Shown: positions 1,928-47,671 of the stretch, one piece after another
Layout: every line of letters begins with the position of its first letter
How positions within the stretch are numbered: position 1 is the first letter of the stretch
Assembly: GCA_040389185.1 (NCBI GenBank)
Contig: JAZKAJ010000005.1
Location: 19,887-83,886, forward strand
Length of the DNA: 64,000 bases
Direction: 5' to 3'
Source of the DNA: Patescibacteria group bacterium
Lineage (GTDB): Bacteria; Patescibacteriota; Minisyncoccia; Phycocordibacterales; CAIRYW01
The notes under the pieces: model-generated
The model's input: only the letters and a program-made list of their open reading frames with translations
Told to the model about the DNA's origin: nothing
The model's database searches: none
Made by a program: the position numbers and the translations under genes

Positions 1928-2590
1928 TTAATATCTACAAGCTTTAATAAAATCAATACCCATTGGTGTAAGCTCTATAAAATCATAGGTTCTTAACACT
2001 AAAGGATAATTTCCAATTGTAGTGCCACCTTTAGAGGAGGGTGTTTGACACAATCCCAATCTAAATAAATTACCCACCAGAATATCATATTCATCACCAG
2101 AAACGCCAGCAAACTTAATAACTTTTTCTTTAATTATCCCAGTTTTATCTTGTTCATCCTTTGGTTTATCTTTAACTTGGTCATAAAAGGTGTCCAATAT
2201 TTTAATTTCAAGTGGTGATAATTGCTTGAGTATATCTGGATAACCGGGCCTAATAATCGAGTTTGAATTCGGATCTGCTGCGTTTGCTAGCATTGCAGAC
2301 CAACGGTCTTTCATACCCTCATCTTCTTCAAGGGAACCGTTTTCAATTATAGGTAGTAATGTTTTCGGTAAAACCTTATTAGGAGTAATTCCTTTATTTT
2401 CTAAAAAGGATTTTGCTTTTAAAACTAGATTTATTTGATTTTTGAATCTCCAAAATTTTACTGTATCAGAAAGCATTCCACCACCTTCTTCAAGCGCAGG
2501 ATTAACCAACTGTCCTAAAAACTTCTCAGCAATTTTTGCTGATTCTTTTATTGCTGTAGTGATTGGATCTTGTGGTGTTAAATCAGACAT
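1928..2590 (-). CDS. Hypothetical protein, 220 aa, adjacent to tRNA-Glu.
   Basis: Long ORF with a coherent hydrophilic composition and no motif I can assign. A vague resemblance to Abi-alpha/DUF4393-type proteins is speculative only. Confidence 0.55.
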   Translation of the reverse strand: MSDLTPQDPITTAIKESAKIAEKFLGQLVNPALEEGGGMLSDTVKFWRFKNQINLVLKAKSFLENKGITPNKVLPKTLLPIIENGSLEEDEGMKDRWSAMLANAADPNSNSIIRPGYPDILKQLSPLEIKILDTFYDQVKDKPKDEQDKTGIIKEKVIKFAGVSGDEYDILVGNLFRLGLCQTPSSKGGTTIGNYPLVLRTYDFIELTPMGIDFIKACRY

Positions 2591-2761
2591 AAGTTACTCG
2601 CACTAGTTCTAAATCATGGTCACGAGTTACTAAGTATAATTTTTCGCTTCGCTCAAATTCTACTAAGTACTCTCGACCCCGTCTCGTTTGTCGCAAAGCG
2701 ACAAAACTGCGACCGTCATCCTCGCTCGCTCACAAAGCAGTTTGTGTGCTTTTTGCTCGTA

Positions 2762-19744: not shown

Positions 19745-19761
19745 TTTTGGCATCAAATCTA

Positions 19762-19792
19762 AATGCGTCGCACCCTTTGGGTGCGACGCATT
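19762..19792. repeat. GC-rich palindromic hairpin aatgcgtcgcaccc-ttt-gggtgcgacgcatt; an identical copy lies at 47641-47671.
   Basis: The 31-32 nt exact repeat occurs at two distant loci, both at convergent gene ends. Confidence 0.6.
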
Positions 19793-19836: not shown

Positions 19837-20925
19837 CTAAAAAAGTTTCACCACATCCGAAATAGTCACAGTGAGCATAAGGATCATGAGAAGTCCGAAA
19901 CCAACGAGATTGAGAGTATTGGCTATGACAGGTTTGATTTGTCGTCTTATGATTGCTTCTATAGCAACAAAAAGTAGTCGTCCTCCATCGAGCGCTGGAA
20001 ATGGTAAAAGATTGATCACTGCCAGATTCAAAGAAATGATCGCAATAAATGAAAAGAGTGTCGACGCGCCAAATTCTCTTGCTTGATTCAAATATCCTGC
20101 GATTCCTATTGGCCCTGAAACATCTTGGAGATTTGCATGAAGTACAAATGCGCTTCCAAAGAATTTCAAAGTTCCAACCATTGTCGCATTAAACATATGA
20201 TAAGTAGATTTTGCACCCTCAAGAAGCGCCGCAAAGAACCCGAGTTTTGTATTTTCAATATCTGCCATCTGTACTCCGATAACATAAGCTCCGTTCGGAG
20301 CTGCTTTTGCCATAACGCTTGTTGTCGCTTTCTCAGTTCCTCGGATATATGAAAGTACAACAGGTAGTCCTTTTGATTCCGTGACAACTTCTTTTATTTT
20401 TTCTGCACTGATTTTCGCATCCGTAGTTGTTGATACAGTTTTTTGTGAAGAGGTAATATCTGTAATAAGGTCTCCTGATTTTAGTCCAACCGCTTCTGCA
20501 GGAGAACCCTTGATGACATCAGTCACAAATACATAATTGCCAGATGACACATTTGAAGCCTGTGGAGCACCAATCATAAAACTTGCTGAAAGCAGTATCC
20601 AAGCAAAAAAAATATTCATGACAATTCCCGCAACTAAAATCGCAGCCTGAATATGTCGAGGTTTGTTGATAAAGCTTCTTGCTTTGTCCGGTCCATCCAT
20701 TGAGTCTTCATCAGGATTCTCTCCAAAGATCTTCACGTACCCCCCAAATGGAATGAGATTGATTGCGTATGTTGTCTCGCCATATTTTTTGGCGTAGATT
20801 CTTGGGGGAAATCCAATTGCGAATTCATCAACTCGGACTCCAGATTTCTTGGCAACCAAAAAATGCCCAAGTTCGTGGACGAAAACCAATATTGAAATAA
20901 CAAGAATGAGTGTAATGAACGACAT
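19837..20925 (-). CDS. rseP: Regulated intramembrane protease RseP (site-2 protease, M50 with PDZ).
   Basis: 362-aa ORF with the HELGHF zinc motif near the N-terminus, a PDZ region and the C-terminal LLPxxxLDGG motif. Confidence 0.88.
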   Translation of the reverse strand: MSFITLILVISILVFVHELGHFLVAKKSGVRVDEFAIGFPPRIYAKKYGETTYAINLIPFGGYVKIFGENPDEDSMDGPDKARSFINKPRHIQAAILVAGIVMNIFFAWILLSASFMIGAPQASNVSSGNYVFVTDVIKGSPAEAVGLKSGDLITDITSSQKTVSTTTDAKISAEKIKEVVTESKGLPVVLSYIRGTEKATTSVMAKAAPNGAYVIGVQMADIENTKLGFFAALLEGAKSTYHMFNATMVGTLKFFGSAFVLHANLQDVSGPIGIAGYLNQAREFGASTLFSFIAIISLNLAVINLLPFPALDGGRLLFVAIEAIIRRQIKPVIANTLNLVGFGLLMILMLTVTISDVVKLF

Positions 20926-35085: not shown

Positions 35086-35431
35086 GTTTGTGGTCTCCTT
35101 TTGTTAGAACTGTTCAAAGTGAACTTATCACGTTTTTGTGATATGTCAATAATATTGTTATGGTTTAATGCTCGGAATCACAAATAAATTAGTGCGGGTT
35201 CTAATTCCAACCAAGGTAACAAAAAATCACCTTGATAAACAAAGTGATTTTTAGTTGCTCCCCGGTAGGGAATCTTTCGTTACACGAACAGTACACCTTT
35301 TGGATAATTTGCTTCTTAAAATCGCAAATTATGCTCAAAAGGTTTTCGATCCCTACACGCAAGTGCCCCGCACTTGCTCGGCTGGAGCACAAAAAGAAAA
35401 AACACCTATTATAGGTGTTTTTTCTTTTTGT

Positions 35432-35775
35432 GCTCCCCCGGTAGGGATCGAACCTACGACCAATCGATTACATTTATCCTAAAATTACTTAAAGGGATGG
35501 ACTATATCATATCCGTATTCTAAATTTCTTTAGAGTTTAGGACCGAGGCGCTTCGTTCCAAATATTATTTAGAACTACTCCGTTAAGGATAGTCTCTGAA
35601 CCTTCTCCGATTTACACCAGAGCTTGGCTGCTGATTGCCCTTTGTATTGCTACAAATAAGGTTTCCAGCAATTCACCTCGTTTTTCAAACTATCATTTCG
35701 ATAGAAAGCTGCAAACAGTATCATTTTTAATGATGACGCTGACAGTCGATTGCTCTACCGCTGAGCTACAGGGGA
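35432..35775 (-). tRNA. Intron-containing tRNA. Exons are 35742-35775 (5') and 35432-35469 (3'). The anticodon is most consistent with GUU (Asn).
   Basis: The exons fold as acceptor TCCCCTG/CGGGGGA, D-arm GCTC-AGCGGTA-GAGC, anticodon stem ATCGA/TCGAT, variable loop TGGTC, T-arm GTAGG-TTCGATC-CCTAC and discriminator G. The loop is CUGU|UAA when spliced at the U.G pair. Confidence 0.75.
35470..35741 (-). ncRNA. Group I self-splicing intron (272 nt) in the tRNA anticodon loop.
   Basis: Canonical core elements are present: P AAUUGCUGGAAAC, Q GCAAUCAGCAGCC, R GGUUCAGAGACUAUCC and S GAUAUGAUAUAGUCCAUCC. The 5' exon ends in U, with a GCAG internal guide that can form P1, and the intron ends in G. 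Confidence 0.8.
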
Positions 35776-36144
35776 ATATTACTCTATCTTTTTGATCATT
35801 ATTTTCATACTGATCAAAATAAATCTGGCAAATAAATTGTCGATTAACAGTCTCGTCACAGATAATTTTCCGCTGAAAATTTCTGCGACCCCACCTCACG
35901 CCATCGCGTTCCGGTCTTGCGGTTGGGTCCCTATCCCAACCTCACTCCACCGCTCTTCTACAGGGGAATACTATGTTTTATCAAACATATCTGATTACTA
36001 ATTATAATAACCAGAATTTGTCTTATAACAACAATTTTTGCTCTACCGCTCCGCTACAGGGGAATACTCGGAACATAGTATCAAAAAAGTAGCTTTTTGC
36101 AAAGGATTAGATAGAACCATATTGCCCTAAGAAAGAAGCCGGGG

Positions 36145-37353
36145 TTATTTTTCGAGAAGTGTTAGCAATGCGTCTAAAGCATCTTCACAACCTTTCGAAT
36201 CCGGATTCACTGCCCTGACCTGGCGAAGCATCTTATCAATCGCATTATCTATCTCAGTCCATTTTGCTTGATTCATTGGCCTTAATTTTGCCTCTGCATT
36301 GTCCCATTCATACTCAAGATCAGAAACACGGGTCTTCGCACCAGAGAGATCACCTGCCGCCACAAACGCGCGCGTATCCTCAGTGATTTTTTTAAAGGTT
36401 GAAAGATCTCCTAATGGCAAAATTGTCGTGGCTGCAGTTGAAGATTCAACCGAAGAATTAATACTAGGGTGATTTGATATTTTGAGTGAATCCTGTCTCC
36501 AAACATATGCAGATATTCCCACAATAAGAAAGATAAGAACAGTTGCAATCGTTTGCTTAATCACCTTTCCCTCTTCCATCCCATCTTCTTTAGTATTTGC
36601 AATTTCAATGACATCTCGTTTAGTAAATGAAAGGAAGATAACAAGTCCAATAATACCAAAGATAAATAAAATACTTGTCATTGTTGCCCCGAGACCTAAT
36701 CCACCATATCTTGAAGGTTGAGAGAGATAATCCCCTATTGATGCCCCGAGTGGACGAGTCATTATATAGATAATCCAAAATGACAATACAGAATTCAGCC
36801 CAGCTCTACGACTGAGGGATGCCAAAAGAATTATAACTGCAACAATAATACCTGTTGTTAAGTAACCAAGACCTAAACTTTCTGCCATCAGATCCCCAGT
36901 AGCTGTACCAAGCGCAAATGTAAAAAGAATAGTAAGCCAGTAAAAAGACTCTCTTCGTTTTGTAAAGATTGAATGTATAGAAAGAGTCTTTTCAGATCGA
37001 TACCACAAAATAAATGTGAGGGCAAGAAGAATGCTAAATAATATGGTACTTGTCTCAAGCGGTACACCTATACTGTCTGTAAGATTATCTGTCACAAGTG
37101 TTCCAAACACACTAATGAATGCGGCAGTGAGCCAATAAACTCCTGGAATATATTTTGAGGCTTTGAACTGAAAGAAAAGTGCCGCCACAAGCAAAATTCC
37201 CATAATAATTGAAGTACCCGTGAGACCAATATTCAAATTAATATTCAAGAAATCAGCAAAAGTTTCCCCAACAGTAGTACACAGTACTTTAATGATCCAA
37301 AAATAAAGAGTGATCTCAGGAACCTTATTTAGTATTTTTTTTATTTCATTCAT
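36145..37353 (-). CDS. DUF347-repeat membrane protein (COG4705-like).
   Basis: 402-aa ORF with four tandem repeats of an aromatic-W...G-x-x-x-D motif in transmembrane pairs (LYFWIIKVLCTTVGETFADFL, VYWLTAAFISVFGTLVTDNL, FYWLTILFTFALGTATGDLM, SFWIIYIMTRPLGASIGDYL), plus a C-terminal soluble domain. Confidence 0.6.
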   Translation of the reverse strand: MNEIKKILNKVPEITLYFWIIKVLCTTVGETFADFLNINLNIGLTGTSIIMGILLVAALFFQFKASKYIPGVYWLTAAFISVFGTLVTDNLTDSIGVPLETSTILFSILLALTFILWYRSEKTLSIHSIFTKRRESFYWLTILFTFALGTATGDLMAESLGLGYLTTGIIVAVIILLASLSRRAGLNSVLSFWIIYIMTRPLGASIGDYLSQPSRYGGLGLGATMTSILFIFGIIGLVIFLSFTKRDVIEIANTKEDGMEEGKVIKQTIATVLIFLIVGISAYVWRQDSLKISNHPSINSSVESSTAATTILPLGDLSTFKKITEDTRAFVAAGDLSGAKTRVSDLEYEWDNAEAKLRPMNQAKWTEIDNAIDKMLRQVRAVNPDSKGCEDALDALLTLLEK

Positions 37354-37418
37354 AAACAGTAGTGTAACATTATATTATTATTGATGCAGAGTTACATGCC
37401 CATCTCTAATGGTAAGTT

Positions 37419-38192
37419 TTATTTAATACTTTCAATTGCGGCACGTACTGCAGCACACATCGCCTTCACTCGGCATTCAAGAGGAAAATCAGAAGAAGTC
37501 TCCAGGGTATAATTAACCGCTTTTTTCTTTTCAAAAAGATAGAGCGCCTCTGGCCAATGTTTTAGTGCATGGAGATCGGTCGGTACGCCAATAATTCCAT
37601 TTACCGCAGGGTACCCATCAATTTCTGAAGAATCATCAATTGGAAAAATTGATCTCACGCTTTCTAATATGTGATTTGCAACTGATTGGTTTCCCTGGTG
37701 TAATGCCTCGTACAAATAGAATCCTTTTGCACCCCAATCTTCATGAAGACATAAAGTGAGATCGTAATTCGGAGAAAGATCTAGCCATTCTACATGGGCA
37801 CAAATGAGAGATGTCTTGCAGTGATAATAATCTCTATTCAGATCAACACAGTCCTCATTCTCTCTTGTATTATTTTTAAATCCAGAAACATTAAGACAAG
37901 GAAAAATGTGAAATTCAATATTTTCTGGCCATGTATTTTTCTTTAATAGTTCTAAAATAGCCAAAGGCCCCGCAGGTTCATCACCATGAATACCGGCTGA
38001 AATGTATACTCTTTTCAGAGGCTCCTGAAATTGTTTTTTGAAAACAATTAATTCTTTTTCATTTGGGACAGGTATTTTTTCAACTATCCAACCAAACTGT
38101 ATCGCAGCCTCAGTACAGTTATCCAAAACACAATCAATATCTATTGTCTCACCGCAATAGCGGTCTTGATTGATATTTAGCTTTTTTGTCAT
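37419..38192 (-). CDS. Succinylglutamate desuccinylase / aspartoacylase family (M14-like zinc hydrolase).
   Basis: 257-aa ORF with the GIHGDEPAG motif typical of the AstE/AspA family. Confidence 0.7.
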   Translation of the reverse strand: MTKKLNINQDRYCGETIDIDCVLDNCTEAAIQFGWIVEKIPVPNEKELIVFKKQFQEPLKRVYISAGIHGDEPAGPLAILELLKKNTWPENIEFHIFPCLNVSGFKNNTRENEDCVDLNRDYYHCKTSLICAHVEWLDLSPNYDLTLCLHEDWGAKGFYLYEALHQGNQSVANHILESVRSIFPIDDSSEIDGYPAVNGIIGVPTDLHALKHWPEALYLFEKKKAVNYTLETSSDFPLECRVKAMCAAVRAAIESIK

Positions 38193-38286
38193 GATTTGTA
38201 TTATAATCTTGATTTATAGAAGGGCAATAGCATATAACAAGAAACAATCTTGGTAATTCTTAGCCACTTCATCCGTCTACTTATTC

Positions 38287-38730
38287 ATGTATTTAGTCAA
38301 AAACAAAGGCTCCCAAAATCCGATACTCCGATATCTTGTTGCAGGGCCGCTCATCTGGCTTATGATCGTTCCCATTATAGCTGCAGATATTCTTGTCGAA
38401 ATTTATCATCGCATCTGTTTCCCTATTTATGGCATACGATTGGTCAAACGCTCACAGTATATTCGCATCGTAGACAGAGCCAAACTCCCCTACCTCACAT
38501 GGTCAGAAAAAATAGGATGTGCTTATTGTGGGTACATGAATGGATGGCTTCACTATGCATCAGTTATTGCAGGCAGAACGGAAAATTATTTTTGTGCAAT
38601 AAGTCATCTTGAAGCTCGAGGTTATGTTCCATCCGAGCATGAAAAATCATTTATCAAATATGGTGATGGTAGCGCACTCAAAAAAAGATATGCAAATCAT
38701 GAATTAAAATATGGTAAAGAGATAGAGTAA
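38287..38730 (+). CDS. Hypothetical protein (147 aa) with an N-terminal membrane segment and a Cys cluster.
   Basis: ORF only. Contains CAYCGYMNGW and a further Cys. Confidence 0.45.
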   Translation: MYLVKNKGSQNPILRYLVAGPLIWLMIVPIIAADILVEIYHRICFPIYGIRLVKRSQYIRIVDRAKLPYLTWSEKIGCAYCGYMNGWLHYASVIAGRTENYFCAISHLEARGYVPSEHEKSFIKYGDGSALKKRYANHELKYGKEIE

Positions 38731-38788
38731 ACACATTTAATATGTAATTTGTTCCACCTCTCTCCGTCATCTATATTGTAACTCTTTA

Positions 38789-38852
38789 ATTCCAACGAGC
38801 GAGGAGCGCGTGAACGAGTACTCTCGTACACAGCGTCCGAGTCGAAGTTGGA
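38789..38852. repeat. 64-nt structured repeat element L (ttccaacgagcgagg...gaacgagtactctcgtac...gttggaa), a short version.
   Basis: It has terminal inverted repeats ttccaac/gttggaa and an internal palindrome. A longer related copy in inverted orientation lies at 39881-40098. Confidence 0.5.
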
Positions 38853-38891
38853 ACAAAGGGTATTTACCCTTTATTAAATAATCAATCTATT

Positions 38892-39047
38892 ATGTTATTA
38901 CAACTTCTCGTGGTTATTGTCGTCCTCTGGGTCATTTATGCGTATCTACTTCCCCTTTTGCCAGAAAAAATAAGGACTCCTGTTCAAATCGTGTTGGTAG
39001 TGATCGTAATTGTCTGGCTACTTCGACTTGCGGGACTTGGATTTTAA
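38892..39047 (+). CDS. Small hydrophobic membrane peptide (51 aa).
   Basis: The translation is MLLQLLVVIVVLWVIYAYLLPLLPEKIRTPVQIVLVVIVIVWLLRLAGLGF. Too short for the ORF track. A terminator lies at 39068-39100. Confidence 0.35.
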   Translation: MLLQLLVVIVVLWVIYAYLLPLLPEKIRTPVQIVLVVIVIVWLLRLAGLGF

Positions 39048-39179
39048 TTCCTTTATACAAGTCAACAAAGAAATGTCCGCTCGCGGGCATTTTCTTTTGC
39101 AAATTTTCTGTAATCTTTCTAGCGATTTCCCGTCGTATATTATATATTAATTGAGTTTTTATTAATTAATTTTTATATC

Positions 39180-39575
39180 ATGAACAAAAATAAAGTTGTG
39201 CATTTTGAGATCGTCGCTATAGACCCACAAAGGGCCATCGAATTTTATACAAAAGTCTTTGGGTGGGAATTCAAGAAATGGGAAGGAGGAGAAATGGATT
39301 ATTGGATGGTTTTAACTGTACCCCAAAACACCCCAGGTGCCATTAATGGAGGACTTCGAAAGGAAATGGAAACAGATATTAAAGAACGTACAAAAAGTGT
39401 GAATGCTTTTGTGAGTATCATAGCCGTCGAATCCATTGATGATATTTTGAAGGGTATAGAAGAAAATGGTGGAGAGATAATGCAGCCAAAAATGAAAATT
39501 GAAAAAATGGGATGGCTCGCGTATTGCTATGATACAGAAGGCAATATGATAGGAATAATGGAACCCGATATGTAA
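39180..39575 (+). CDS. VOC family protein (glyoxalase/bleomycin-resistance fold).
   Basis: 131-aa ORF with VHFEIVAIDPQRAIEFYTKVFGWEF... and a C-terminal GWLAYCYDTEGNMIGIME segment. Confidence 0.7.
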   Translation: MNKNKVVHFEIVAIDPQRAIEFYTKVFGWEFKKWEGGEMDYWMVLTVPQNTPGAINGGLRKEMETDIKERTKSVNAFVSIIAVESIDDILKGIEENGGEIMQPKMKIEKMGWLAYCYDTEGNMIGIMEPDM

Positions 39576-39615
39576 TTTCTATATAATATATTTATTATTA
39601 AATAATCTATTCTCT

Positions 39616-39807
39616 ATGACAAAGACAACTTATCTCACTATTGTATCTATAATATTCTTTATAGTAGGTGTCGTTCATATTATAAGAATAATAAATGGAG
39701 CAGCAATAAACATTGAAGGTTTTGAGGTGCCAATGATTGCAAGCTGGATCGGCGCAATAGTAGCTCTCTTTCTCTCCTATCAAGGAACTCAATTAAGAAA
39801 TAAATAA
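39616..39807 (+). CDS. Small membrane protein (63 aa).
   Basis: Two hydrophobic helices. Terminator hairpin at 39805-39835. Confidence 0.4.
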   Translation: MTKTTYLTIVSIIFFIVGVVHIIRIINGAAINIEGFEVPMIASWIGAIVALFLSYQGTQLRNK

Positions 39808-39880
39808 AGGGCCGCAGAGCGGGGCCCTTTATTCCAACTCGACATTGTTTTCTTATGAGCAAAGCGAATTAGAAAACAAG

Positions 39881-40098
39881 AAGTACTCTTGTGGCGTAAG
39901 AGTACTCGTTCCACGCTTTCCTTACAGGAACTGTGTCGTAGATATTTTTCTTATGAAAAATTCTACCACCCTGACTCGCACCGTCGTGCTCCGTCTCTAA
40001 ATTCTTCCAAGTATTCAGAATTCAGCCTTTTGGATTGAGTACAATCTCAAAAGTCTTCTAAAGCTCCATGCATTCGCTTTTCACCTCGCTCGTTGGAA
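39881..40098. repeat. 218-nt structured repeat element R, the long inverted copy related to the element at 38789-38852.
   Basis: Its reverse complement starts ttccaacgagcgagg and ends ...tggaacgagtactcttacgccacaagagtactt. It contains a 9-bp palindrome agtactctt/aagagtact. Confidence 0.5.
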
Positions 40099-40168
40099 AT
40101 AACATAGTAAAAAAACAAATCACTACCTCTTGAGGTAGTGATTTGTTTTTATTATGTTATAAACTATC

Positions 40169-40399
40169 TTACTTTGTTGTTGCTTGTCCAGAGGTTCCAT
40201 CTCCCCCTCCACTTGGAAGCTTCACATTTACATCGAGACTGCCTGCATTGTTCTGTGGTGCTGCAGGTGCTTGTGCTCTCATTCGCGGAAACCCATACAT
40301 AAAGAAGAGTGCTCCAAGAACAATAACTACTATTAATACCACTACTGCTCCCATACCGCCGCCATCTCCGTTCCCTGGATTATTAACTATTGTTGTCAT
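40169..40399 (-). CDS. Small Gly/Pro-rich membrane protein (76 aa), higher GC.
   Basis: ORF with one transmembrane helix. A strong palindromic terminator at 40109-40150 lies downstream. Confidence 0.4.
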   Translation of the reverse strand: MTTIVNNPGNGDGGGMGAVVVLIVVIVLGALFFMYGFPRMRAQAPAAPQNNAGSLDVNVKLPSGGGDGTSGQATTK

Positions 40400-40607
40400 A
40401 AAAAATTAGAATTAGCTTATTAATTTCTCCCATACTATAAGACGAAGTGTAAACTTAATTATTACCATAAATTATTAATTTAAAGCTTTTTAAGTAATCA
40501 AAATTTAGAATGATGATAAGTAAATTAGAAAATTATACTCCCGCATGAGCACGGGCAGGGAATTATTTTTTTGACAAAAGGCTCTCAAAATGAGATTGTG
40601 TGTCTAG

Positions 40608-41084
40608 ATGAAAACACACCAAGCAAGCAAAACCAGCTTTTTTCAAAGATATGAGCAGGCTTATATCTCAAGGCAGATTAAGAATCCTGATAAAGGAAGT
40701 AATTTTGAAATAGCATCACGCTACTTCAGATGGCTTCCAGAGTATTTGCTAATCCAGCTTCTCAAAATTGCAAAATACGACGGTATTCTGTTTTATGAGA
40801 ATGATCAAATTATCGGCCACATCTTCTACCAAAAACATCCGGAAGGATGGAAAGTGTTCTCGGTGCATGTTTCAGACAACCTTCGCGGAAAAGGATACGG
40901 CCAAAAAATGATCTCAACATTCCTCATCACTGCTCACAATCAAGGTTTGAAGAGAGTCAGGATTGGCGCCGGAGGGAGTGTTACCCTAGAGCACATCTGC
41001 ACAAAAGTCATTTCTGGCGGACTTACACTCCCCTTCAAAGTAAGGAGAGGTGATACTACTGGGTGGCTCAATTTTGTTCAATAA
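40608..41084 (+). CDS. GNAT family N-acetyltransferase.
   Basis: 158-aa ORF with the acetyl-CoA binding motif VHVSDNLRGKGYGQKMI (R/Q-x-x-G-x-G/A). Confidence 0.78.
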   Translation: MKTHQASKTSFFQRYEQAYISRQIKNPDKGSNFEIASRYFRWLPEYLLIQLLKIAKYDGILFYENDQIIGHIFYQKHPEGWKVFSVHVSDNLRGKGYGQKMISTFLITAHNQGLKRVRIGAGGSVTLEHICTKVISGGLTLPFKVRRGDTTGWLNFVQ

Positions 41085-41150
41085 CGGAGTTAAGGACAAC
41101 ATCACAAAGGCTTCATCATATGCGACAGCATGTAATGAAGTTTTTTTTAT

Positions 41151-41669
41151 TTACATTACAATCTCACTTTGAAAGATACTTTTAAGAGCGTCTTTGATCT
41201 CTTTGTCTTCTCCCATATAAAACACAATCACTTTTTCATTGCTGTAGAGGTGAACATCTTTCTTCCAAGAACCATATTCTGTTTTTGAGCTTTTCTTGAA
41301 TGCTTCCTCGTCAGTTATCAAAGCGTCAATGTTGTCATATTCATATACCTTTATATTGCTATGAGCGAGCGTAATCATCTTTCCTTCAACCGTAAAGAAT
41401 GCTCTTGTGTTGTTCGCTACCACTTCAGGATTTAAACGGAGCTGCTTTAAACTATCAACAAGATCATTTGTGCCTGGACCAATATTTTTAACTGGATTTT
41501 GTCCTAAGATATTACTCCCCAATGTATCAGCAAGCGCAGTGGTGTTTGAGAATAAACCAGATTGAAAGAAGTGAAAAAATGAAGTAATTACCCAAAGAAG
41601 ACTGAGACCTAAGATGAGGAGGTGTTTAGTGTGACTTTTCATATATCTCTGCATTGTGACGGTTTCCAT
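41151..41669 (-). CDS. Hypothetical secreted or membrane-anchored protein (172 aa).
   Basis: N-terminal signal anchor (HLLILGLSLLWVITSFF). No motif recognised. Confidence 0.5.
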   Translation of the reverse strand: METVTMQRYMKSHTKHLLILGLSLLWVITSFFHFFQSGLFSNTTALADTLGSNILGQNPVKNIGPGTNDLVDSLKQLRLNPEVVANNTRAFFTVEGKMITLAHSNIKVYEYDNIDALITDEEAFKKSSKTEYGSWKKDVHLYSNEKVIVFYMGEDKEIKDALKSIFQSEIVM

Positions 41670-41790
41670 ACTAATGATGTCGTTTCAAAATGAAAAATAT
41701 TACACAATACCCATAGTAAAGATGGTGAGAAACTGGAATTATAATTAAAATTAAGGTACAATGTCCTTATAATCGTTAAATTAAATTTTT

Positions 41791-41931
41791 ATGGCAAAAA
41801 GAACAGGATCAATAAGCAGACTCACAACTTTGAGTCTCAAAGGGCCTCGAAAGACAAAAAAGAGACTCGCAATCAAGAAAGCAAAGATTGCAAAGAAGAC
41901 TGCAAACAAGAGATACAATAAAGGTAAATAA
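41791..41931 (+). CDS. Small highly basic protein (46 aa), possibly ribosomal-protein-like.
   Basis: The translation is MAKRTGSISRLTTLSLKGPRKTKKRLAIKKAKIAKKTANKRYNKGK. It is followed immediately by a 23-bp-arm palindromic terminator. Confidence 0.35.
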   Translation: MAKRTGSISRLTTLSLKGPRKTKKRLAIKKAKIAKKTANKRYNKGK

Positions 41932-41980
41932 TCTCAAAATAAAAAACCCCTCGAAAGAGGGGGTTTTTTATTTTGAGATT
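41930..41980. terminator. Very long perfect palindrome (aatctcaaaataaaaaacccctc-gaaa-gagggggttttttattttgagatt) acting as a bidirectional terminator.
   Basis: Read directly from the sequence. Lies between convergent small genes. Confidence 0.65.
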
Positions 41981-41985
41981 ATGTC

Positions 41986-42165
41986 TTATTTTGTCTTCGC
42001 CTTTACTTCTCCTTCTGTCTTTGCCTTTCCTAGAATACAGTACATTCCTGTTCCGCAAACAGGACACTTTCCTTTCATAGCCTTTCGTCCATTCTTCATT
42101 TCTACCTCTTTTGCCTCTGACATTTCCTGTTTTGCCTTACATTTAACACAATATGCTGTTGCCAT
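41986..42165 (-). CDS. Small C4 zinc-ribbon protein (59 aa).
   Basis: The translation is MATAYCVKCKAKQEMSEAKEVEMKNGRKAMKGKCPVCGTGMYCILGKAKTEGEVKAKTK. Start taken at the internal Met of the 41986-42225 ORF. Confidence 0.45.
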   Translation of the reverse strand: MATAYCVKCKAKQEMSEAKEVEMKNGRKAMKGKCPVCGTGMYCILGKAKTEGEVKAKTK

Positions 42166-42564
42166 AGTTATAAATTTAATTTCTAATGTATTTACTATAG
42201 CATATAATGCAATTTTAATACACAACTGTCCACAGAGGAGACTAAATGCCTGTCATAACATTGTTCAAGCATCGTCTTAATAATTAAGTCGAGTCGACGA
42301 ATTTAGTATTTATTAATATTAATAACTTACATAATTTTATGTCACAAAAAAGAAATGACGGTGATGACCAAGATCCATCAACAGAGCCAAAAAAACCAGA
42401 ACAGGATAACGAGACTCCTCACCCAACTCCTTGGGGTGCAGGACCAGATACTGAATAAGTAAACAATCTTTAGGTTCAGAAAAATACCCGATGCCGTAGG
42501 CATCGGGTATTTTGACATATTTTGCATACACGGTATTCTGTATGTATATAAATAATTTAAATAT

Positions 42565-44223
42565 ATGACCAAGCGAAATGCTCTTATCTCAGTTTCAGAC
42601 AAAGAAAACATTGTAGAATTTGCCAAAAGATTAATCGCACTCGATTTCAATGTCATAGCCTCAGGAGGAACAGCAAAACTCCTTGAATCAAGCGGAGTCA
42701 GAGTCACAAGCACCGCAGAAGTCATTAATATCTATGCGCGAGACATTCTGAAGAAAAATAATATAAAAATAACTCCAGAAATTGAGCATTCACTAGGTGG
42801 TGCAATCCTTGATCATCGTGTAGTTACCCTTTCACGCGAGATCCATGGCGGAATTCTTGCTCGAAAAGATCACATGGAAGAACTCTCAAAACTAATGATT
42901 CCGTGGATCGACCTTGTTTGCGTTGATTTCTACCCTTTTGAAAAGACAATCGCAAAACCAGGCATCACTATGTATGAAGCGATCGAACAAGATGATGTGG
43001 GGGGACCAACAATGATCCATTCAGCTGCCAAGGGAGCTCAAGAAGGTCGTATAGTTATAAGTGATCCAAAAGATCGTGACATAGTATTAGCACTTCTCGA
43101 ACAAAGTTCAGATCACGATCTCACACAAGAAAAGAAAAACGAACTCGCATCCAAAGCGGATTATATTGTCAGCCGTTATTGTATGATGGTCTCCACATAC
43201 AGAAGCGACAGAAATTTTGTGGGAATGTTCGGAGAAAAAGTCGCAGCATGTAAATACGGCGAGAATGCACACCAGACTCCAGCAGCACTGTATTCAAATG
43301 GAAGTAATGACCCACTTGCTCTCGATCAATTCGTCGTTGTTGAAGGAATGCTTCCAAGTTACAACAATTATTGTGATATTTATCGAATGACTCAGATCGC
43401 AACACATATTGCAGGAGCATTCGATAAAAACACAAAGAAAGTTCCATTTATGGCAATTGGAGTAAAGCACGGCAATCCTTGTGGCACAGCGATTGGCACA
43501 AATCCAAAACAAGTCTTGAAAAAAATGATGTCGGGAGATCCACTTTCAATATTCGGTGGACTCGTCATGACCAACTTCCCCATTGATGAAAAACTTGTGA
43601 GTGAACTTTCTGGCCGCATGCTTGATGGAATCATTGCCCCAGCATTTTCAAATGATGCGATCGAAAAATTGAAAAGAAAGGGTAACAAATGCCGATTTGT
43701 AGTGAACAAAGAACTATCAAAACTCTCAATTAAAAGTATCGACACTGCACCGTACTTTAGATATGTTCGTGGAGGATTCCTTGAACAGCCAAACTATACT
43801 TTTGTTATAGATCTCAAAGCACCTGAAATAAAACAATATGGAAAGATCTCACAGAGCCAAAAGAATGATCTCCTTCTTGCGTGGGCAATTGGATCTACCT
43901 CAAACAGCAACACAATTTCAATTGTTAAAAATGGTCAGCTGATTGGAAACGGTGTAGGTCAGCAGGACCGAGTAGGTGCAGCTAAACTCGCGCTCGAAAG
44001 AGCAAAGAGATCAAAGCACACACTCGCAGGCGCAAGTGCATTTAGCGACTCATTCTTCCCTTTCCCAGATGCACCAGAAGTACTCATAAAAGCCGGTATC
44101 AAAACGATCCTCAGTACAAGCGGTTCAGTGAAAGATGACCTCACGATCACTTTATGCCAGAAAAAAGGAACAGGTCTTATAATGATCCCCGACTCACTTG
44201 GACGAGGTTTTTTTGGGCACTAG
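42565..44223 (+). CDS. purH: Bifunctional AICAR transformylase / IMP cyclohydrolase.
   Basis: 552-aa ORF with an N-terminal MGS-like IMPCH domain (ALISVSDKENIVEFAKRL...ASGGTAK) and a C-terminal AICARFT domain. Confidence 0.88.
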   Translation: MTKRNALISVSDKENIVEFAKRLIALDFNVIASGGTAKLLESSGVRVTSTAEVINIYARDILKKNNIKITPEIEHSLGGAILDHRVVTLSREIHGGILARKDHMEELSKLMIPWIDLVCVDFYPFEKTIAKPGITMYEAIEQDDVGGPTMIHSAAKGAQEGRIVISDPKDRDIVLALLEQSSDHDLTQEKKNELASKADYIVSRYCMMVSTYRSDRNFVGMFGEKVAACKYGENAHQTPAALYSNGSNDPLALDQFVVVEGMLPSYNNYCDIYRMTQIATHIAGAFDKNTKKVPFMAIGVKHGNPCGTAIGTNPKQVLKKMMSGDPLSIFGGLVMTNFPIDEKLVSELSGRMLDGIIAPAFSNDAIEKLKRKGNKCRFVVNKELSKLSIKSIDTAPYFRYVRGGFLEQPNYTFVIDLKAPEIKQYGKISQSQKNDLLLAWAIGSTSNSNTISIVKNGQLIGNGVGQQDRVGAAKLALERAKRSKHTLAGASAFSDSFFPFPDAPEVLIKAGIKTILSTSGSVKDDLTITLCQKKGTGLIMIPDSLGRGFFGH

Positions 44224-44272
44224 AAGTGAAGTAGCGAATCTACCAAAATAATTCAGAAGTTAGACTTCTGAA

Positions 44273-45841
44273 TTATTTTGATATTGGTAATGTAATAGTG
44301 AAGACGCTTCCAAGATCTTTACCTTCTGATTCAGCAATTATATTTCCGCCGTGCTTCTTGAAGATATTTTTTGCAATAAATAGTCCAATACCCATTCCTT
44401 CTGTATCTGTATTTTGAGCATCATGGCTTCTAAAAAATTTTGTAAAAATTAAAGGCAGATCTTCCTTTTGGATACCGATACCTCTGTCTCTGAAAATTAT
44501 TTTTGCTTCGTGTCCCTGTACTTTTAGGCTAATACTGATTTTCCCTAGATTAGGAGTATACAAAACTGCGTTGTCGAGAATAATCTGAAGAGCAAATTCT
44601 AAACGCTCTTTGTCCACCATAGAAAACACAGGATTATCAGGATACGAAGTAGAGAGATCAATATGCTTATCTTCAAATTGCTTCATATTATTGAGAACAA
44701 TATGCCGAAGAAGCTCAGAAATATCCTGTTCTTTGAATTGATATGCGTATTTATTTGATTCTGATTTCTCAAGATCAACAAGAAGATCAGTGAGTGAGTT
44801 CAGTCTTTCACAAGCAATCTGCACTTCACCAATAATCTTTTTTCTTTGTTCGTCGGTATTTTTTTCGACGAGAAGATTTTCCATAGACCACTTTATATAA
44901 GTAAGTGGCGTACGGAATTTATGAGTGATGACAGTAACAAATTCATATTTGAGCATGTCCACTTCCCTGATCTTTCTCCAAACAAGAATCCCAAGCACAA
45001 CAACAACACCACCACTTAAAAAAGGTATCAAAAGTGGAGGAAAATCCTTGATGTGGGCTACCAAAAAATTGTTTACACTATTAACAAAGATAAGTGCAAT
45101 CCCCACACCCACGACACCTACAGAATACAAAAAAGCCTTTTTCGCCACCACCCTGACATCCAAAAGTTCAAAACTTAAAAAAGAATACGCAAAAGGAATC
45201 GTGTAGAGCCCACAAAATATCGCATAAACAGGATCAATTGGAATATCAAAGACAAGAAGAAAGGCTGTTGAGCCGAGCGTATATCCATAGAGAAATCCAA
45301 TAAACATATATTTAGCACGATTCTTCTCAATATTATTTGAGCCCACATAGCAGCGCCATAAATCATATACATTATAAAGTGAACAAAGAAGGAAAAAAAT
45401 ATTAAAGATAATAAACCCTGGCCCAGGCACATAATAATATGGGAGATAAAGTTTGGAATGAGGTATACCCAAAAACATTTCTGGGTTTATGAGAAAATAG
45501 ACAAACAAAAGCATTCCAATTAAGTATGTCGCATAGAGCACAACCTTTCTCTCGATTGTTTTTTGTCCAAATACCTCGTAAACAAAATGGATACTGAAAA
45601 TTACAATAAATATATCAGAGAGGAGAAACATAAAATCATTTCGAGCACTTATTGCATTCGAAGCATTGATCCCCAAGAGATGACCTATATAGTAAGCAAC
45701 GACAGAAATAGTAAGAAGAAAAAATAAAATATGCGAGACTTTTCGATGTGCCTTAAAAAGAACAAAGATTCCCAAAAGAAGAATTATTGAGGTGCAAAAT
45801 ATTCCAGCTATATTTATAGTAAGCAGCTCCGGGTGTAACAT
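44273..45841 (-). CDS. Sensor histidine kinase (polytopic membrane sensor, HisKA plus HATPase_c).
   Basis: 522-aa ORF with about 7 N-terminal transmembrane helices, an H-box ITHKFRTPLT and N/G1/G2 boxes (DRGIGI, GMGIGL). No cognate response regulator is nearby. Confidence 0.82.
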   Translation of the reverse strand: MLHPELLTINIAGIFCTSIILLLGIFVLFKAHRKVSHILFFLLTISVVAYYIGHLLGINASNAISARNDFMFLLSDIFIVIFSIHFVYEVFGQKTIERKVVLYATYLIGMLLFVYFLINPEMFLGIPHSKLYLPYYYVPGPGFIIFNIFFLLCSLYNVYDLWRCYVGSNNIEKNRAKYMFIGFLYGYTLGSTAFLLVFDIPIDPVYAIFCGLYTIPFAYSFLSFELLDVRVVAKKAFLYSVGVVGVGIALIFVNSVNNFLVAHIKDFPPLLIPFLSGGVVVVLGILVWRKIREVDMLKYEFVTVITHKFRTPLTYIKWSMENLLVEKNTDEQRKKIIGEVQIACERLNSLTDLLVDLEKSESNKYAYQFKEQDISELLRHIVLNNMKQFEDKHIDLSTSYPDNPVFSMVDKERLEFALQIILDNAVLYTPNLGKISISLKVQGHEAKIIFRDRGIGIQKEDLPLIFTKFFRSHDAQNTDTEGMGIGLFIAKNIFKKHGGNIIAESEGKDLGSVFTITLPISK

Positions 45842-45955
45842 AGTTCGTTCTAATTATAGCAACTAGGATAACGCTCGTCGAGAATGGGTTTCCTACAATA
45901 CTCTAGCTCCTCATGACACAAACTTCTCTATACAAATATATGATACAATATAGCA

Positions 45956-46816
45956 ATGGAAGATTTTCTTTCTCTACATATAGCACGGCCCTATGTCTAC
46001 ACGATCCTTATTGTGGGACTCTGTGCTATTACATATGGATACACTACAATCTTGGATGAAAAAAGTAATATTGAAGTGAAACTTTTCAATACTAATATTG
46101 AACTCTCTCAAGCCCAAACCCAAAGCGCGTATTTTCAATCCCTCCTCGATGCAAAAGAAAATGAAAAATTAGCTCTCCAGGATACTGTCGAAGATTTCTC
46201 AAATCAGGTTGCAACACTCGAAAAGATCAGAGACACAGACAAGGAGCTTCTTCAAAAATACTCAAAAGTATATTTCTTGAATGAAAACTATACTCCGAAA
46301 GACATAGAGGAAATTTCTTCGATCTATCTTACTCCAAATTCTAAACCACTTGAGCTCGATGCCAATGTTCTCCCATTTTTGAAAAGAATGATCAGGGCAT
46401 CAATCAAAGCTAACAATCCCATCCAAGTTGTCTCGGCTTACAGATCATTTGGAACACAGGAAAATTTGAAGACCGCATACAAAGCAACCTTCGGTTCTGG
46501 CGCAAATGCGTTTTCTGCAGACCAAGGATATTCCGAACACCAACTCGGTACAACAGTTGATCTTACAACACCTATTCTTCAAAATACTTTCGTGTCTTTT
46601 GAGGACACACCTGCGTTCAAATGGTTAGAAGACCATGCGCAAGAATATGGATTTACACTCTCCTACCCAAAGGGTAATAAATATTATGTCTATGAACCAT
46701 GGCATTGGAGATTTGTTGGAGTAGAGCTTGCAACAAAACTTCACGATGAGAATATACACTTTTATGATATGGATCAAAGAGAGATTGATACATATCTTCT
46801 GAAAATATTTGATTAA
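45956..46816 (+). CDS. D-alanyl-D-alanine carboxypeptidase family (VanY / peptidase M15B).
   Basis: 286-aa ORF with SAYRSFGTQ, SEHQLGTTVDL and EPWHWRFVG motifs, plus an N-terminal transmembrane anchor. Confidence 0.75.
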   Translation: MEDFLSLHIARPYVYTILIVGLCAITYGYTTILDEKSNIEVKLFNTNIELSQAQTQSAYFQSLLDAKENEKLALQDTVEDFSNQVATLEKIRDTDKELLQKYSKVYFLNENYTPKDIEEISSIYLTPNSKPLELDANVLPFLKRMIRASIKANNPIQVVSAYRSFGTQENLKTAYKATFGSGANAFSADQGYSEHQLGTTVDLTTPILQNTFVSFEDTPAFKWLEDHAQEYGFTLSYPKGNKYYVYEPWHWRFVGVELATKLHDENIHFYDMDQREIDTYLLKIFD

Positions 46817-46875
46817 AGCCTATTGAGTTCTCTCAATAAGTTGAGTATTTTACGCATATAATCTATAATCCAAAC

Positions 46876-47592
46876 ATGATACTACTTATTAGTTTGGGAG
46901 CAAGTGCCGCCACCTATTTAGGAGGGCTGATTGCTTTACGATTCAAAGACCGACTCCATCTCATTTTAGGGTTTTCTGCAGGAGCAGTTATTGGCGTTGC
47001 ATTCTTTGACCTTATGCCTGAGGCACTTGGGTTGACATCACAATATTTCACCACTCCAACTACCCTCTCAATTGTTGCGCTCGGATTTATTTCGTACATG
47101 ATTCTTGATCGATCAATAGCTCTGCATAGTCATACCGATGAAGACAGTTGCAACAAGCATCGAAGTAATATCGGTGCAGGCAGTCTTTCAATACATAGCT
47201 TTCTTGATGGAGTGGCTATTGGAGTCGCATTTCAGGTTGGGACCGCAGTTGGAACTATTGTTGCAGTTGCAGTGCTTGTGCATGATTTTTCTGATGGAAT
47301 GAATACAGTCAACATGATCCTAAAAAATAACGGCGACAGAATGAGAGCACTCAAATGGCTAAGTATTGATGCGATAGCTCCAATACTTGGCGTTATCTCC
47401 ACTCTTTTTTTTACTCTCGAAGAAAGTGTACTTGGAATCATTCTCGCCCTATTCTCTGGATTCTTTCTCTATATTGGAGCAAGCGATCTATTACCAGAAA
47501 GCCACCACGGACACAGTACAATGTGGACTACGGTAGCAACAGTAGTTGGAACATCAATACTTTTTGTTGCTATAAAATTGGCAGGAATATAG
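46876..47592 (+). CDS. zupT: ZIP family metal transporter (ZupT-like).
   Basis: 238-aa ORF with about 8 transmembrane helices, HDFSDG and HHGH motifs. Confidence 0.85.
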   Translation: MILLISLGASAATYLGGLIALRFKDRLHLILGFSAGAVIGVAFFDLMPEALGLTSQYFTTPTTLSIVALGFISYMILDRSIALHSHTDEDSCNKHRSNIGAGSLSIHSFLDGVAIGVAFQVGTAVGTIVAVAVLVHDFSDGMNTVNMILKNNGDRMRALKWLSIDAIAPILGVISTLFFTLEESVLGIILALFSGFFLYIGASDLLPESHHGHSTMWTTVATVVGTSILFVAIKLAGI

Positions 47593-47640
47593 AGAAACAG
47601 TATTTGGTATGTAGTATATTGTATATAGTATAAATTAAAA

Positions 47641-47671
47641 TGCGTCGCACCCTTTGGGTGCGACGCATTTT
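47641..47671. repeat. Second exact copy of the hairpin aatgcgtcgcaccc-ttt-gggtgcgacgcatt, flanked by imperfect AT-rich inverted repeats.
   Basis: Identical to the copy at 19762-19792. It sits between convergent genes. Confidence 0.6.

Follow-up and report, generated by a model that had tools for sequence, protein, structure and literature searches.

A structured intergenic repeat inserted upstream of a VOC gene in a Patescibacteria chromosome and its diverged relatives nearby

Small intergenic repeats that are co-transcribed with neighbouring genes include those of Neisseria (Correia elements) and of enterobacteria (ERIC/IRU sequences). They resemble miniature inverted-repeat transposable elements (MITEs), feature long terminal inverted repeats (about 26 bp for Correia) and duplications such as TA, and are present in tens to hundreds of near-identical copies. 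MITEs in general are recognized by terminal inverted repeats at both ends, usually of at least 10 bp. Other small elements are the REP sequences, which measure 20–40 nt and are usually clustered, and integron attC sites, in which RYYYAAC and GTTRRRY boxes close an imperfect hairpin of 57–141 nt. Patescibacteria have tiny genomes, and, to our knowledge, their mobile DNA and regulatory RNAs have been little described. In this study, a 64,000-nt stretch of a Patescibacteria group bacterium (contig JAZKAJ010000005.1, positions 19,887 to 83,886; hereafter, the window) was analysed with respect to two inverted, structured elements, termed A and B, which enclose about 1 kb with a 51-aa hydrophobic open reading frame (ORF), a VOC gene, and a 63-aa membrane ORF. 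A first-pass annotation of the sequence had described these enclosed genes correctly, and had interpreted the arrangement as a composite MITE-flanked cassette or, alternatively, as a pair of related cis-regulatory RNAs. The two elements and their 3' hairpins are located as follows:

38790 to 38853, plus strand: core of element A, 64 nt, read from the sequence and an exact-block search
38855 to 38875, plus strand: 3' hairpin of A (AAAGGGT-ATTT-ACCCTTT) with T-rich tail, terminator-like, inside the segment absent from the empty-site strains
39832 to 40098, minus strand: element B, 267 nt, about 50 nt longer than first annotated
39806 to 39830, no strand assigned: GC-rich hairpin AAAGGGCCGCAGAGCGGGGCCCTTT, the 3' hairpin of B on the minus strand and terminator-like for the 63-aa ORF on the plus strand

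Sequence comparison and folding confirmed that A and B are real, related, structured, and non-coding. Their placement and inverted orientation were also as annotated, but A had to be shifted by one base, and B does not end at 39881 but runs to 39832, where its terminal GTCGAGTTGGAA matches GTCGAAGTTGGAA of A. The 15-nt sequence TTCCAACGAGCGAGG has two exact occurrences in the window (38790–38804, plus strand, and 40084–40098, minus strand), as has the 13-nt sequence GAACGAGTACTCT (38812–38824, plus strand, and 39899–39911, minus strand). Altogether, A and B have three collinear blocks in common, the third of them with one indel, and the collinear chain of exact blocks amounts to 28 nt. Among 1,276 windows of 291 nt compared with A, all those not overlapping A or B scored 11 nt or less. 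The stretches between the common blocks are unrelated; the earlier proposal that the short copy is an internally deleted version of the long one is therefore plausible at the level of the family, but not as a direct descent of A from B.

The two elements also have a 7-bp closing stem (TTCCAAC/GTTGGAA) in common, as deduced for B from the match of its terminal sequence to that of A. Besides this stem, A consists of the 5' box CGAGCGAGG and the inner hairpin ACGAG-TACT-CTCGT, and its RNA fold reaches −36.6 kcal/mol (z = −5.3 versus shuffled sequence). B folds with −105.7 kcal/mol (z = −6.8 versus shuffled sequence) and features the same 5' box, several internal hairpins, and a second stem, GAGCGAGGUGAA/UUCGCUUUGCUC, whose three G-U pairs identify the minus strand as the folding strand. 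Block 2, although common to both elements, takes different folds in A and B, indicating that its conservation lies at the sequence level. A hairpin of the form AAAGGG-loop-CCCTTTATT follows 3' of each element (38855–38872 for A and 39830–39806 for B), and the hexamer TACTAT is found just upstream of B. The GC content around the A/B region is not anomalous. A tRNA-like fold was considered for A and rejected, since ARAGORN was negative and D and T arms are lacking. Likewise, small peptides encoded inside A, B, or D were dismissed, because the candidates are short, unconserved, and poorly spaced with respect to the start codon.

Sister assemblies were retrieved by exact-protein look-ups of the 76-aa and 51-aa products, namely a 30-kb NCBI metagenome contig (L273/L275) and an independent Logan assembly from a sister run (L274). 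Both are 97–99% identical to the window and feature the same gene order, i.e., a 147-aa gene, the 51-aa ORF, the VOC gene, the 63-aa ORF, B, and a 76-aa gene. In BLAST comparisons with the window, positions 38792–38869 (78–79 nt) are missing from L275, L274, and L273. The missing unit is composed of A and its 3' hairpin and contains no credible ORF. The alignment breaks at 38791/38870, the two flanking alignments overlap by 6 nt, and the insert is bordered by an imperfect direct repeat (TTTAAT, 38786–38791, and TTTATT, 38870–38875). The empty site reads ...TATATTGTAAACTTTTATTAAATAATC..., with the hexamer TTTATT, and the filled site reads ...TATATTGTAACTCTTTAAT, followed by the insert TCCAAC...GGGTATTTACCC and, beyond it, TTTATTAAATAATC.... 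B is analogously flanked by GTTATT and TTTATT. At both elements, for which the first-pass annotation had proposed a check for target-site duplications, the flanking repeats are short, imperfect, and AT-rich.

The filled state is represented by two assemblies, the window and the Logan contig L001, which is identical to window positions 35748–47669. The A site is also empty in L234, which is more distantly related (84% identical at the nucleotide level) and retains the VOC gene, the 51-aa ORF, and the promoter-like stretch, indicating that the insertion of A represents the derived state. B is base-for-base identical between the window strain and an A-less strain. The DNA that received A is T-rich; a −10-like hexamer precedes the site by 12 nt, and a start codon follows about 100 nt further downstream. 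As judged from these aligned sequences, the comparison shows that A was recently inserted, with a promoter-like site on one side and the 51-aa ORF on the other. The possibility that A acts as a riboswitch or leader for the 51-aa ORF was rejected on account of its absence from near-identical strains.

A and B are not the only copies of the element, since the 64-kb window harbours at least four family members (A, B, C, and D). The additional copies, the conserved core of B, and a weak further candidate are located as follows:

39926 to 40000, minus strand: conserved core of B, hairpins H2 and H3 joined by conserved unpaired bases
35780 to 35972, minus strand: element C, upstream of an intron-containing tRNA, with its core at 35846–35920, conserved in L235
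2610 to 2730, minus strand: element D, between tRNA-Glu (2833–2762) and an Abi_alpha gene (2590–1928)
35312 to 35377, minus strand: possible fifth member, weak (covariance model R2, 16.3 bits, E = 0.028), several unpaired positions, not relied on

Element C was first seen through the 1.1-kb contig L235 of a relative, one stretch of which matched the interior of B (39943–39993); together with neighbouring sequence, this stretch also matches window positions 35766–35972. C resides on the minus strand between repeated tRNA 5' fragments and the intact intron-containing tRNA. It is 78% identical to its orthologue (L235:1-205), where it is retained downstream of a conserved extended −10-like sequence, TGATACTAT. 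Element D carries CGAGCGAGG, CGAGACGGGGTCG, and CGAGAGTACT and folds with z = −3.0, the z-scores across the family elements ranging from −3 to −6.8. Exact copies of CGAGCGAGG occur three times in the window, one each in A, B, and D. The possible fifth member follows directly after the tRNA terminator. The TTCCAAC/GTTGGAA boxes are lacking in C and D.

In B, C, and the L235 orthologue, the core begins with CGGA and continues with a 4-bp stem that has a GAYG cap, then GAG, two bases, RGGGU, and a 15-bp hairpin. A BLAST comparison of the B core to the C orthologue in L235 gave an E-value of about 1e-6, and B, C, and the L235 orthologue can be aligned without gaps over 62 of the 75 nt. Within this alignment, 97% of the cells are paired and 9 out of 22 pairs are changed on both sides, a combination of pairing and compensation that was reached in none of 500 shuffles; in controls with slid partners, pairing falls to 29–50%. 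Addition of D, the row of which was fitted to the model, raised the number of compensatory pairs to 13 out of 22, with 96–97% of the core paired overall. The two C orthologues alone account for 12 compensatory pairs over five hairpins. Based on covariation among three or four sequences, these alignments show that the family core has apparently been under selection for pairing.

A covariance model built on the core (R1) assigned 92 bits to B, 89 bits to C, and 88 bits to the L235 orthologue, and recovered D as a further match in the window (2610–2718, minus strand, 19.7 bits, E = 0.015). The model R2, which was built with D included, scores D itself at 47 bits. Over the 598 kb searched, R1 found nothing beyond B, C, L235, and D. 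Neither BLAST nor a motif search detected the A/B blocks in 80 metagenome loci around homologues of the 147-aa protein plus the loci L150 and L151 (526 kb), and the R1 core was absent from these 526 kb and from L232–L234 and L236, the C orthologue in L235 being the sole match outside the window. In a genome collection, TTCCAACGAGCGAGG was present in at least 119 stretches with one match each, and none of the matches listed had the other blocks, so that these look like chance matches. Among viral contigs, 29 stretches matched the 15-mer and 36 the pattern CGGANNNNGAYGNNNNGAGNNRGGGT, none of them with a second block or an R1 score above 22.3 bits, which is chance-like. By BLAST, B had no counterpart in the phage and plasmid collections, and a literature search yielded nothing relevant. 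Furthermore, the Rfam scan suggested by the first-pass annotation assigned A, B, C, and D to no family; even at permissive thresholds (E up to 10), the matches were far below the gathering score and at chance level.

Several side observations concern the surroundings of C and D. A group I intron (Rfam Intron_gpI, 35478–35738, 69.5 bits) interrupts the tRNA gene at window positions 35440–35778 (minus strand). This gene was not reported by ARAGORN, and its exons read as tRNA-Asn (anticodon GUU), the 5' exon ending with ...CUGU and the 3' exon beginning with UAAUCGAU. The first ~29 nt of the split tRNA, including 4 nt upstream, are present three times (36041–36073, 35942–35972, and 35750–35778, minus strand); L235 lacks the first fragment copy and the next 67 nt, corresponding to a 96-nt indel. 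C begins with the second fragment copy and contains ACTGTTAATCGA (35840–35851), a sequence identical to the anticodon loop and 3' stem after splicing, and it thus looks like a remodelled intron-less tRNA copy. An origin of the elements as debris from homing of the nearby group I intron was rejected for want of sequence similarity. The Abi_alpha (abortive infection) gene (1928–2590, minus strand) lies immediately downstream of D and tRNA-Glu.

Taken together, we favour, with modest confidence, the reading that A and B are diverged copies of a lineage-specific family of non-coding structured repeats that insert individually and are MITE/REP-like with atypical ends. What lies between them is a set of ordinary chromosomal genes that vary locally. 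According to this model, each copy is made up of a 5' box rich in purines (CGAGCGAGG) and at least one hairpin, with conserved unpaired GGA/GAG/GGGU nucleotides as the joining segments; A and B have, in addition, the closing stem of 7 bp and a terminator-like, GC-rich hairpin that ends in a T-rich tail. Copies would enter T-rich intergenic DNA singly. The sense strand of each copy is placed where transcription would run, either with or beside the neighbouring genes, suggesting that the elements exist as RNA; possible sources of transcription are the promoter-like site of the host for A, TACTAT-type −10 boxes for B and C, and tRNA-Glu for D. The insertion of A would lengthen the leader from about 30 to about 110 nt, adding −36 kcal/mol of structure that ends in a terminator-like hairpin, and would probably dampen or insulate the 51-aa/VOC transcript. 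B, being situated between two convergent terminators, may provide additional 3'-end structure or a short independent RNA. By analogy with MITE, REP, and PATE elements, the most likely route of spreading appears to be mobilization in trans, the enzyme being encoded elsewhere than in the window, since it fits best with small, non-coding units featuring asymmetric ends, hairpins, and T-rich targets.

A number of observations weigh against this interpretation. The 4–5 copies known originate from one window and are highly diverged from each other, and neither a donor nor a near-identical sibling of A was found in the sequences searched, whereas MITE families with recent activity usually comprise large numbers of near-identical copies. 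The ends of the inserted unit are asymmetric, the 7-bp inverted repeat not being at its right-hand end, and the repeat flanking A, short, imperfect, and AT-rich as it is, might stem from microhomology and not from duplication of a target site. No mobilizing enzyme was found among the 47 window ORFs scanned, and, within the 526 kb of related Patescibacteria loci, only the C orthologue was found. The proposed transcription, termination, and effect on the operon were deduced from sequence features. Moreover, the compensatory changes are at least as well explained by a functional RNA as by a selfish DNA element.

The main rival explanation, which we consider possible but clearly less probable, regards the elements as a family of paralogues, either small RNA genes or RNA modules acting in cis, that were copied by ordinary duplication, A being a newly gained small RNA or leader. 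Such RNAs might act, for instance, by protein sequestration via the unpaired GGA/GAG nucleotides or by base-pairing via the 5' box. In line with the alternative offered by the first-pass annotation, it remains viable given the strong compensatory variation and the G-U strand asymmetry of the core, the conserved unpaired GGA/GAG/GGGU nucleotides, the maintenance of C at 78% identity in another genome behind an extended −10-like sequence, the similar TACTAT just upstream of B, and the terminator-like hairpins closing A and B. However, A entered an existing leader without bringing a promoter of its own and is dispensable in 97–99% identical strains, the divergent folding of block 2 speaks against a single conserved RNA function, and the searches made revealed neither an Rfam family nor a homologue outside the lineage. 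An improbable further reading is that of an undescribed small mobile structured RNA element of candidate-phyla-radiation bacteria that copies itself as a transcript-shaped unit. The A insert spans from where a B/C-type promoter (TACTAT plus 5–7 nt) would start to the terminator hairpin and U-tract, a shape that reverse-transcription insertion of a terminated small RNA into a T-rich site might leave; alternatively, a single-strand, hairpin-recognizing enzyme of a new type could be responsible. It seems very unlikely that B and the convergent 63-aa hydrophobic ORF form a pair resembling a type I toxin-antitoxin system, with B as the antisense RNA. The ORF is a small hydrophobic orphan that converges on B, has the terminator hairpin in common with it, and is absent from L236 jointly with B, but the overlap would comprise just the ~25-nt terminator, 63 aa with two predicted hydrophobic segments are not typical of a type I toxin, a partner of this kind is lacking for A, C, and D, and the ORF may not be a real gene.

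To the remaining explanations, we assign hardly any weight. The composite cassette proposed by the first-pass annotation, in which A and B would move the 51-aa/VOC/63-aa module as a unit, was suggested by the inverted geometry around ~1 kb of small accessory-type genes, and VOC neighbourhoods do differ between relatives. It is already contradicted by the strain comparison, as the whole module and B are found at the same place and in the same order and orientation without A, and the 38.8–40.1 kb segment thus does not vary as a unit. Furthermore, L234 contains the 51-aa ORF and the VOC gene after the 147-aa gene, with an extra OmdA gene between and without A, and L236 contains the VOC gene, unrelated sequence, and then the 76-aa gene, with neither the 63-aa ORF nor B. 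Ends and cargo do not travel together, and no transposase or other recombinase was found in the window ORFs scanned. A by itself behaves like a small mobile or duplicative insertion. With at least four family members in 64 kb, the distance of ~1–1.3 kb between A and B is not striking; by a rough estimate, the chance of two copies lying 1.3 kb apart amounts to a few tenths. Just as improbable is an invertible DNA switch, for which the exact 15-bp inverted repeats (38790–38804 and 40084–40098) would serve as crossover sites of a 1.3-kb flip exchanging A and B behind the promoter-like site just outside the left repeat: a single orientation was observed in four out of four independent assemblies, A-less strains cannot invert, and no invertase or recombinase was detected in the window ORFs scanned. 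Equally hard to sustain is a cluster of integron attC sites without integrase, with TTCCAAC and GTTGGAA as the R'' and R' boxes. These agree with RYYYAAC and GTTRRRY at 6 out of 7 positions each, and, in the fold of the 64-nt A, an internal loop separates the closing stem from a second stem that contains one extrahelical G. However, A and B lie on opposite strands, in contrast to co-oriented cassette arrays, B (267 nt) is well beyond the length range of attC sites, the boxes are lacking in C and D, the polymorphic unit comprises two hairpins and no ORF, its junctions are not at G/TT, and no integrase was found in the window ORFs scanned.

The genetic context corresponds to an ordinary Patescibacteria (Parcubacteria-like) chromosome with genes for cell-wall functions, aminoacyl-tRNA synthetases, MreB, PriA, and PurH; none of the 47 window ORFs scanned encodes a transposase, integrase, or invertase. 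The features surrounding A and B are as follows:

38287 to 38730, plus strand: 147-aa protein gene, cysteine-containing product, adjoining A, no Pfam domain
38749 to 38777, plus strand: TTGTTC-17 nt-TATATT, a promoter-like site preceding the 51-aa/VOC genes and belonging to the host, not to the element
38892 to 39047, plus strand: 51-aa hydrophobic ORF with its own hairpin (39069–39100), conserved in L234
39180 to 39575, plus strand: VOC protein (Glyoxalase/bleomycin-resistance fold; Pfam PF00903, E = 1.4e-10)
39616 to 39807, plus strand: 63-aa membrane ORF, orphan, uncertain as a real gene
40399 to 40169, minus strand: 76-aa gene with terminator hairpin (40111–40150), immediately upstream of B on the minus strand

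The promoter-like site is also present in L275/L274, which lack A, and in a looser form in L234; a consensus scan did not flag it. The 147-aa protein is 100% identical to V4469_00980, a protein of a Patescibacteria metagenome-assembled genome, and represents a well-conserved uncharacterized family, with 65–80% identity across more than 100 Patescibacteria proteins. VOC homologues are common in Parcubacteria and reside in varied neighbourhoods, as exemplified by L150 and L151, where the VOC gene has a different neighbourhood without the element and the adjacent 79-aa gene is unrelated to the 76-aa gene of the window. For the 63-aa ORF, a search among 5.8 billion proteins returned only itself, and the ORF is absent from L236. 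The latter, a 987-nt Logan contig, carries the same 30-mer, ACCCGAAAAAATTTGAACTGACGCATTAGG, in inverted orientation at both ends (1–30 and 958–987), about 70 nt upstream of the VOC gene and about 50 nt upstream of the convergent 76-aa gene. These 30-mers are unrelated to A/B and could either be genuine, as an inverted repeat or a common promoter element on both sides of the VOC pair, or reflect a break of the assembly graph at repeats.

Further strain differences and repeats were observed apart from the family. The sister strain possesses a gene for a 213-aa HAD-family hydrolase (L273:8902-9627) between the AstE-like and DUF347 genes, which is lacking in the window (37354–37418), and the identity of the two strains, 97–99% elsewhere, falls to 86% at the start of DUF347. 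Upstream of purH, the window features a short hairpin, CCCGATGCC-GTA-GGCATCGGG (42458–42499), whereas the corresponding region of the sister strain (L275:5781-5891) is longer by ~70 nt and contains a nested hairpin that resembles a terminator. In this population, intergenic hairpins seem to be indel hotspots. A 38-nt palindromic hairpin, AAATGCGTCGCACCCTTTGGGTGCGACGCATT, is present at 19755–19792 and 47632–47669, i.e., 28 kb apart, with 95% identity, and further inverted similarity was found nearby (19957–19987 and 47547–47577); these hairpins may represent a second small repeated hairpin family. Finally, a 74-nt direct repeat of 86% identity (243–316 and 1813–1886), the copies of which start with ATG on the minus strand and read MNPLHSQISHLLNK..., may mark where two small paralogous genes, or their leaders, begin.

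The locus provides a clean pair of filled and empty sites for a ~79-nt structured element, and the covariation-supported core shared by the paralogues and one orthologue is sufficient for model building. Such a model would allow asking how far the elements have spread, what moves them, and whether they rewire the expression of small accessory genes, the VOC pair among them. If they prove to be functional RNAs, they would constitute a new RNA family for the phylum; if they are selfish, a new type of non-autonomous element with atypical ends. Should the transcript-shaped unit apply, the tRNA association of C and D and the apparent origin of C in a duplicated tRNA 5' half would point to preferred landing sites.

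Compared to the systems described previously, the elements share with Correia and ERIC repeats their intergenic position, a size of ~60–270 nt, the non-coding, hairpin-forming character, and the occurrence of long and short variants, as well as strain-level presence or absence with short flanking repeats and the capacity to add hairpins or terminators to neighbouring transcripts. They differ from these families in that the inverted repeat is 7 bp long and not terminal on the right, only 4–5 copies are known, and the copies have just short blocks and a structural core in common. The resemblance to attC sites consists of a short inverted RYYYAAC...GTTRRRY-like core, conservation of structure over sequence, and variable length, the 64-nt A being within the attC range; the opposite orientations, the ORF-less inserted unit, the excessive length of B, the missing boxes of C and D, and the failure to find an integrase set them apart. 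Multi-copy small RNAs of the CsrB/RsmZ type likewise comprise diverged paralogues per genome with unpaired GGA motifs between covarying stems and terminators, which is a resemblance only; here, there is no sequence or Rfam match to them, and one copy lies inside the leader of another gene. Compensatory pairs and strand-specific G-U pairs, as expected of structured non-coding RNAs in general, were found in an alignment of 3–4 sequences including the fitted row of D. With REP/BIME-RAYT systems and palindrome elements derived from IS200/IS605, the family has in common the asymmetric ends without terminal inverted repeats, the conserved hairpins, an intergenic location close to gene 3' ends and terminators, and a strand-specific fold with G-T/G-U pairs; unlike these systems, no RAYT or TnpA gene was seen in the window, and two junctions do not allow a target tetranucleotide to be defined. 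With regard to MITEs, the ends are at variance, as there is a 7-bp repeat only, the unit continues past GTTGGAA through the second hairpin, and the 5' end of the A insert is unrelated to the reverse complement of its 3' end. The polymorphism, however, is that of a MITE: a non-coding unit of 78–79 nt, present in the window and absent from two 97–99% identical strains and from L234.

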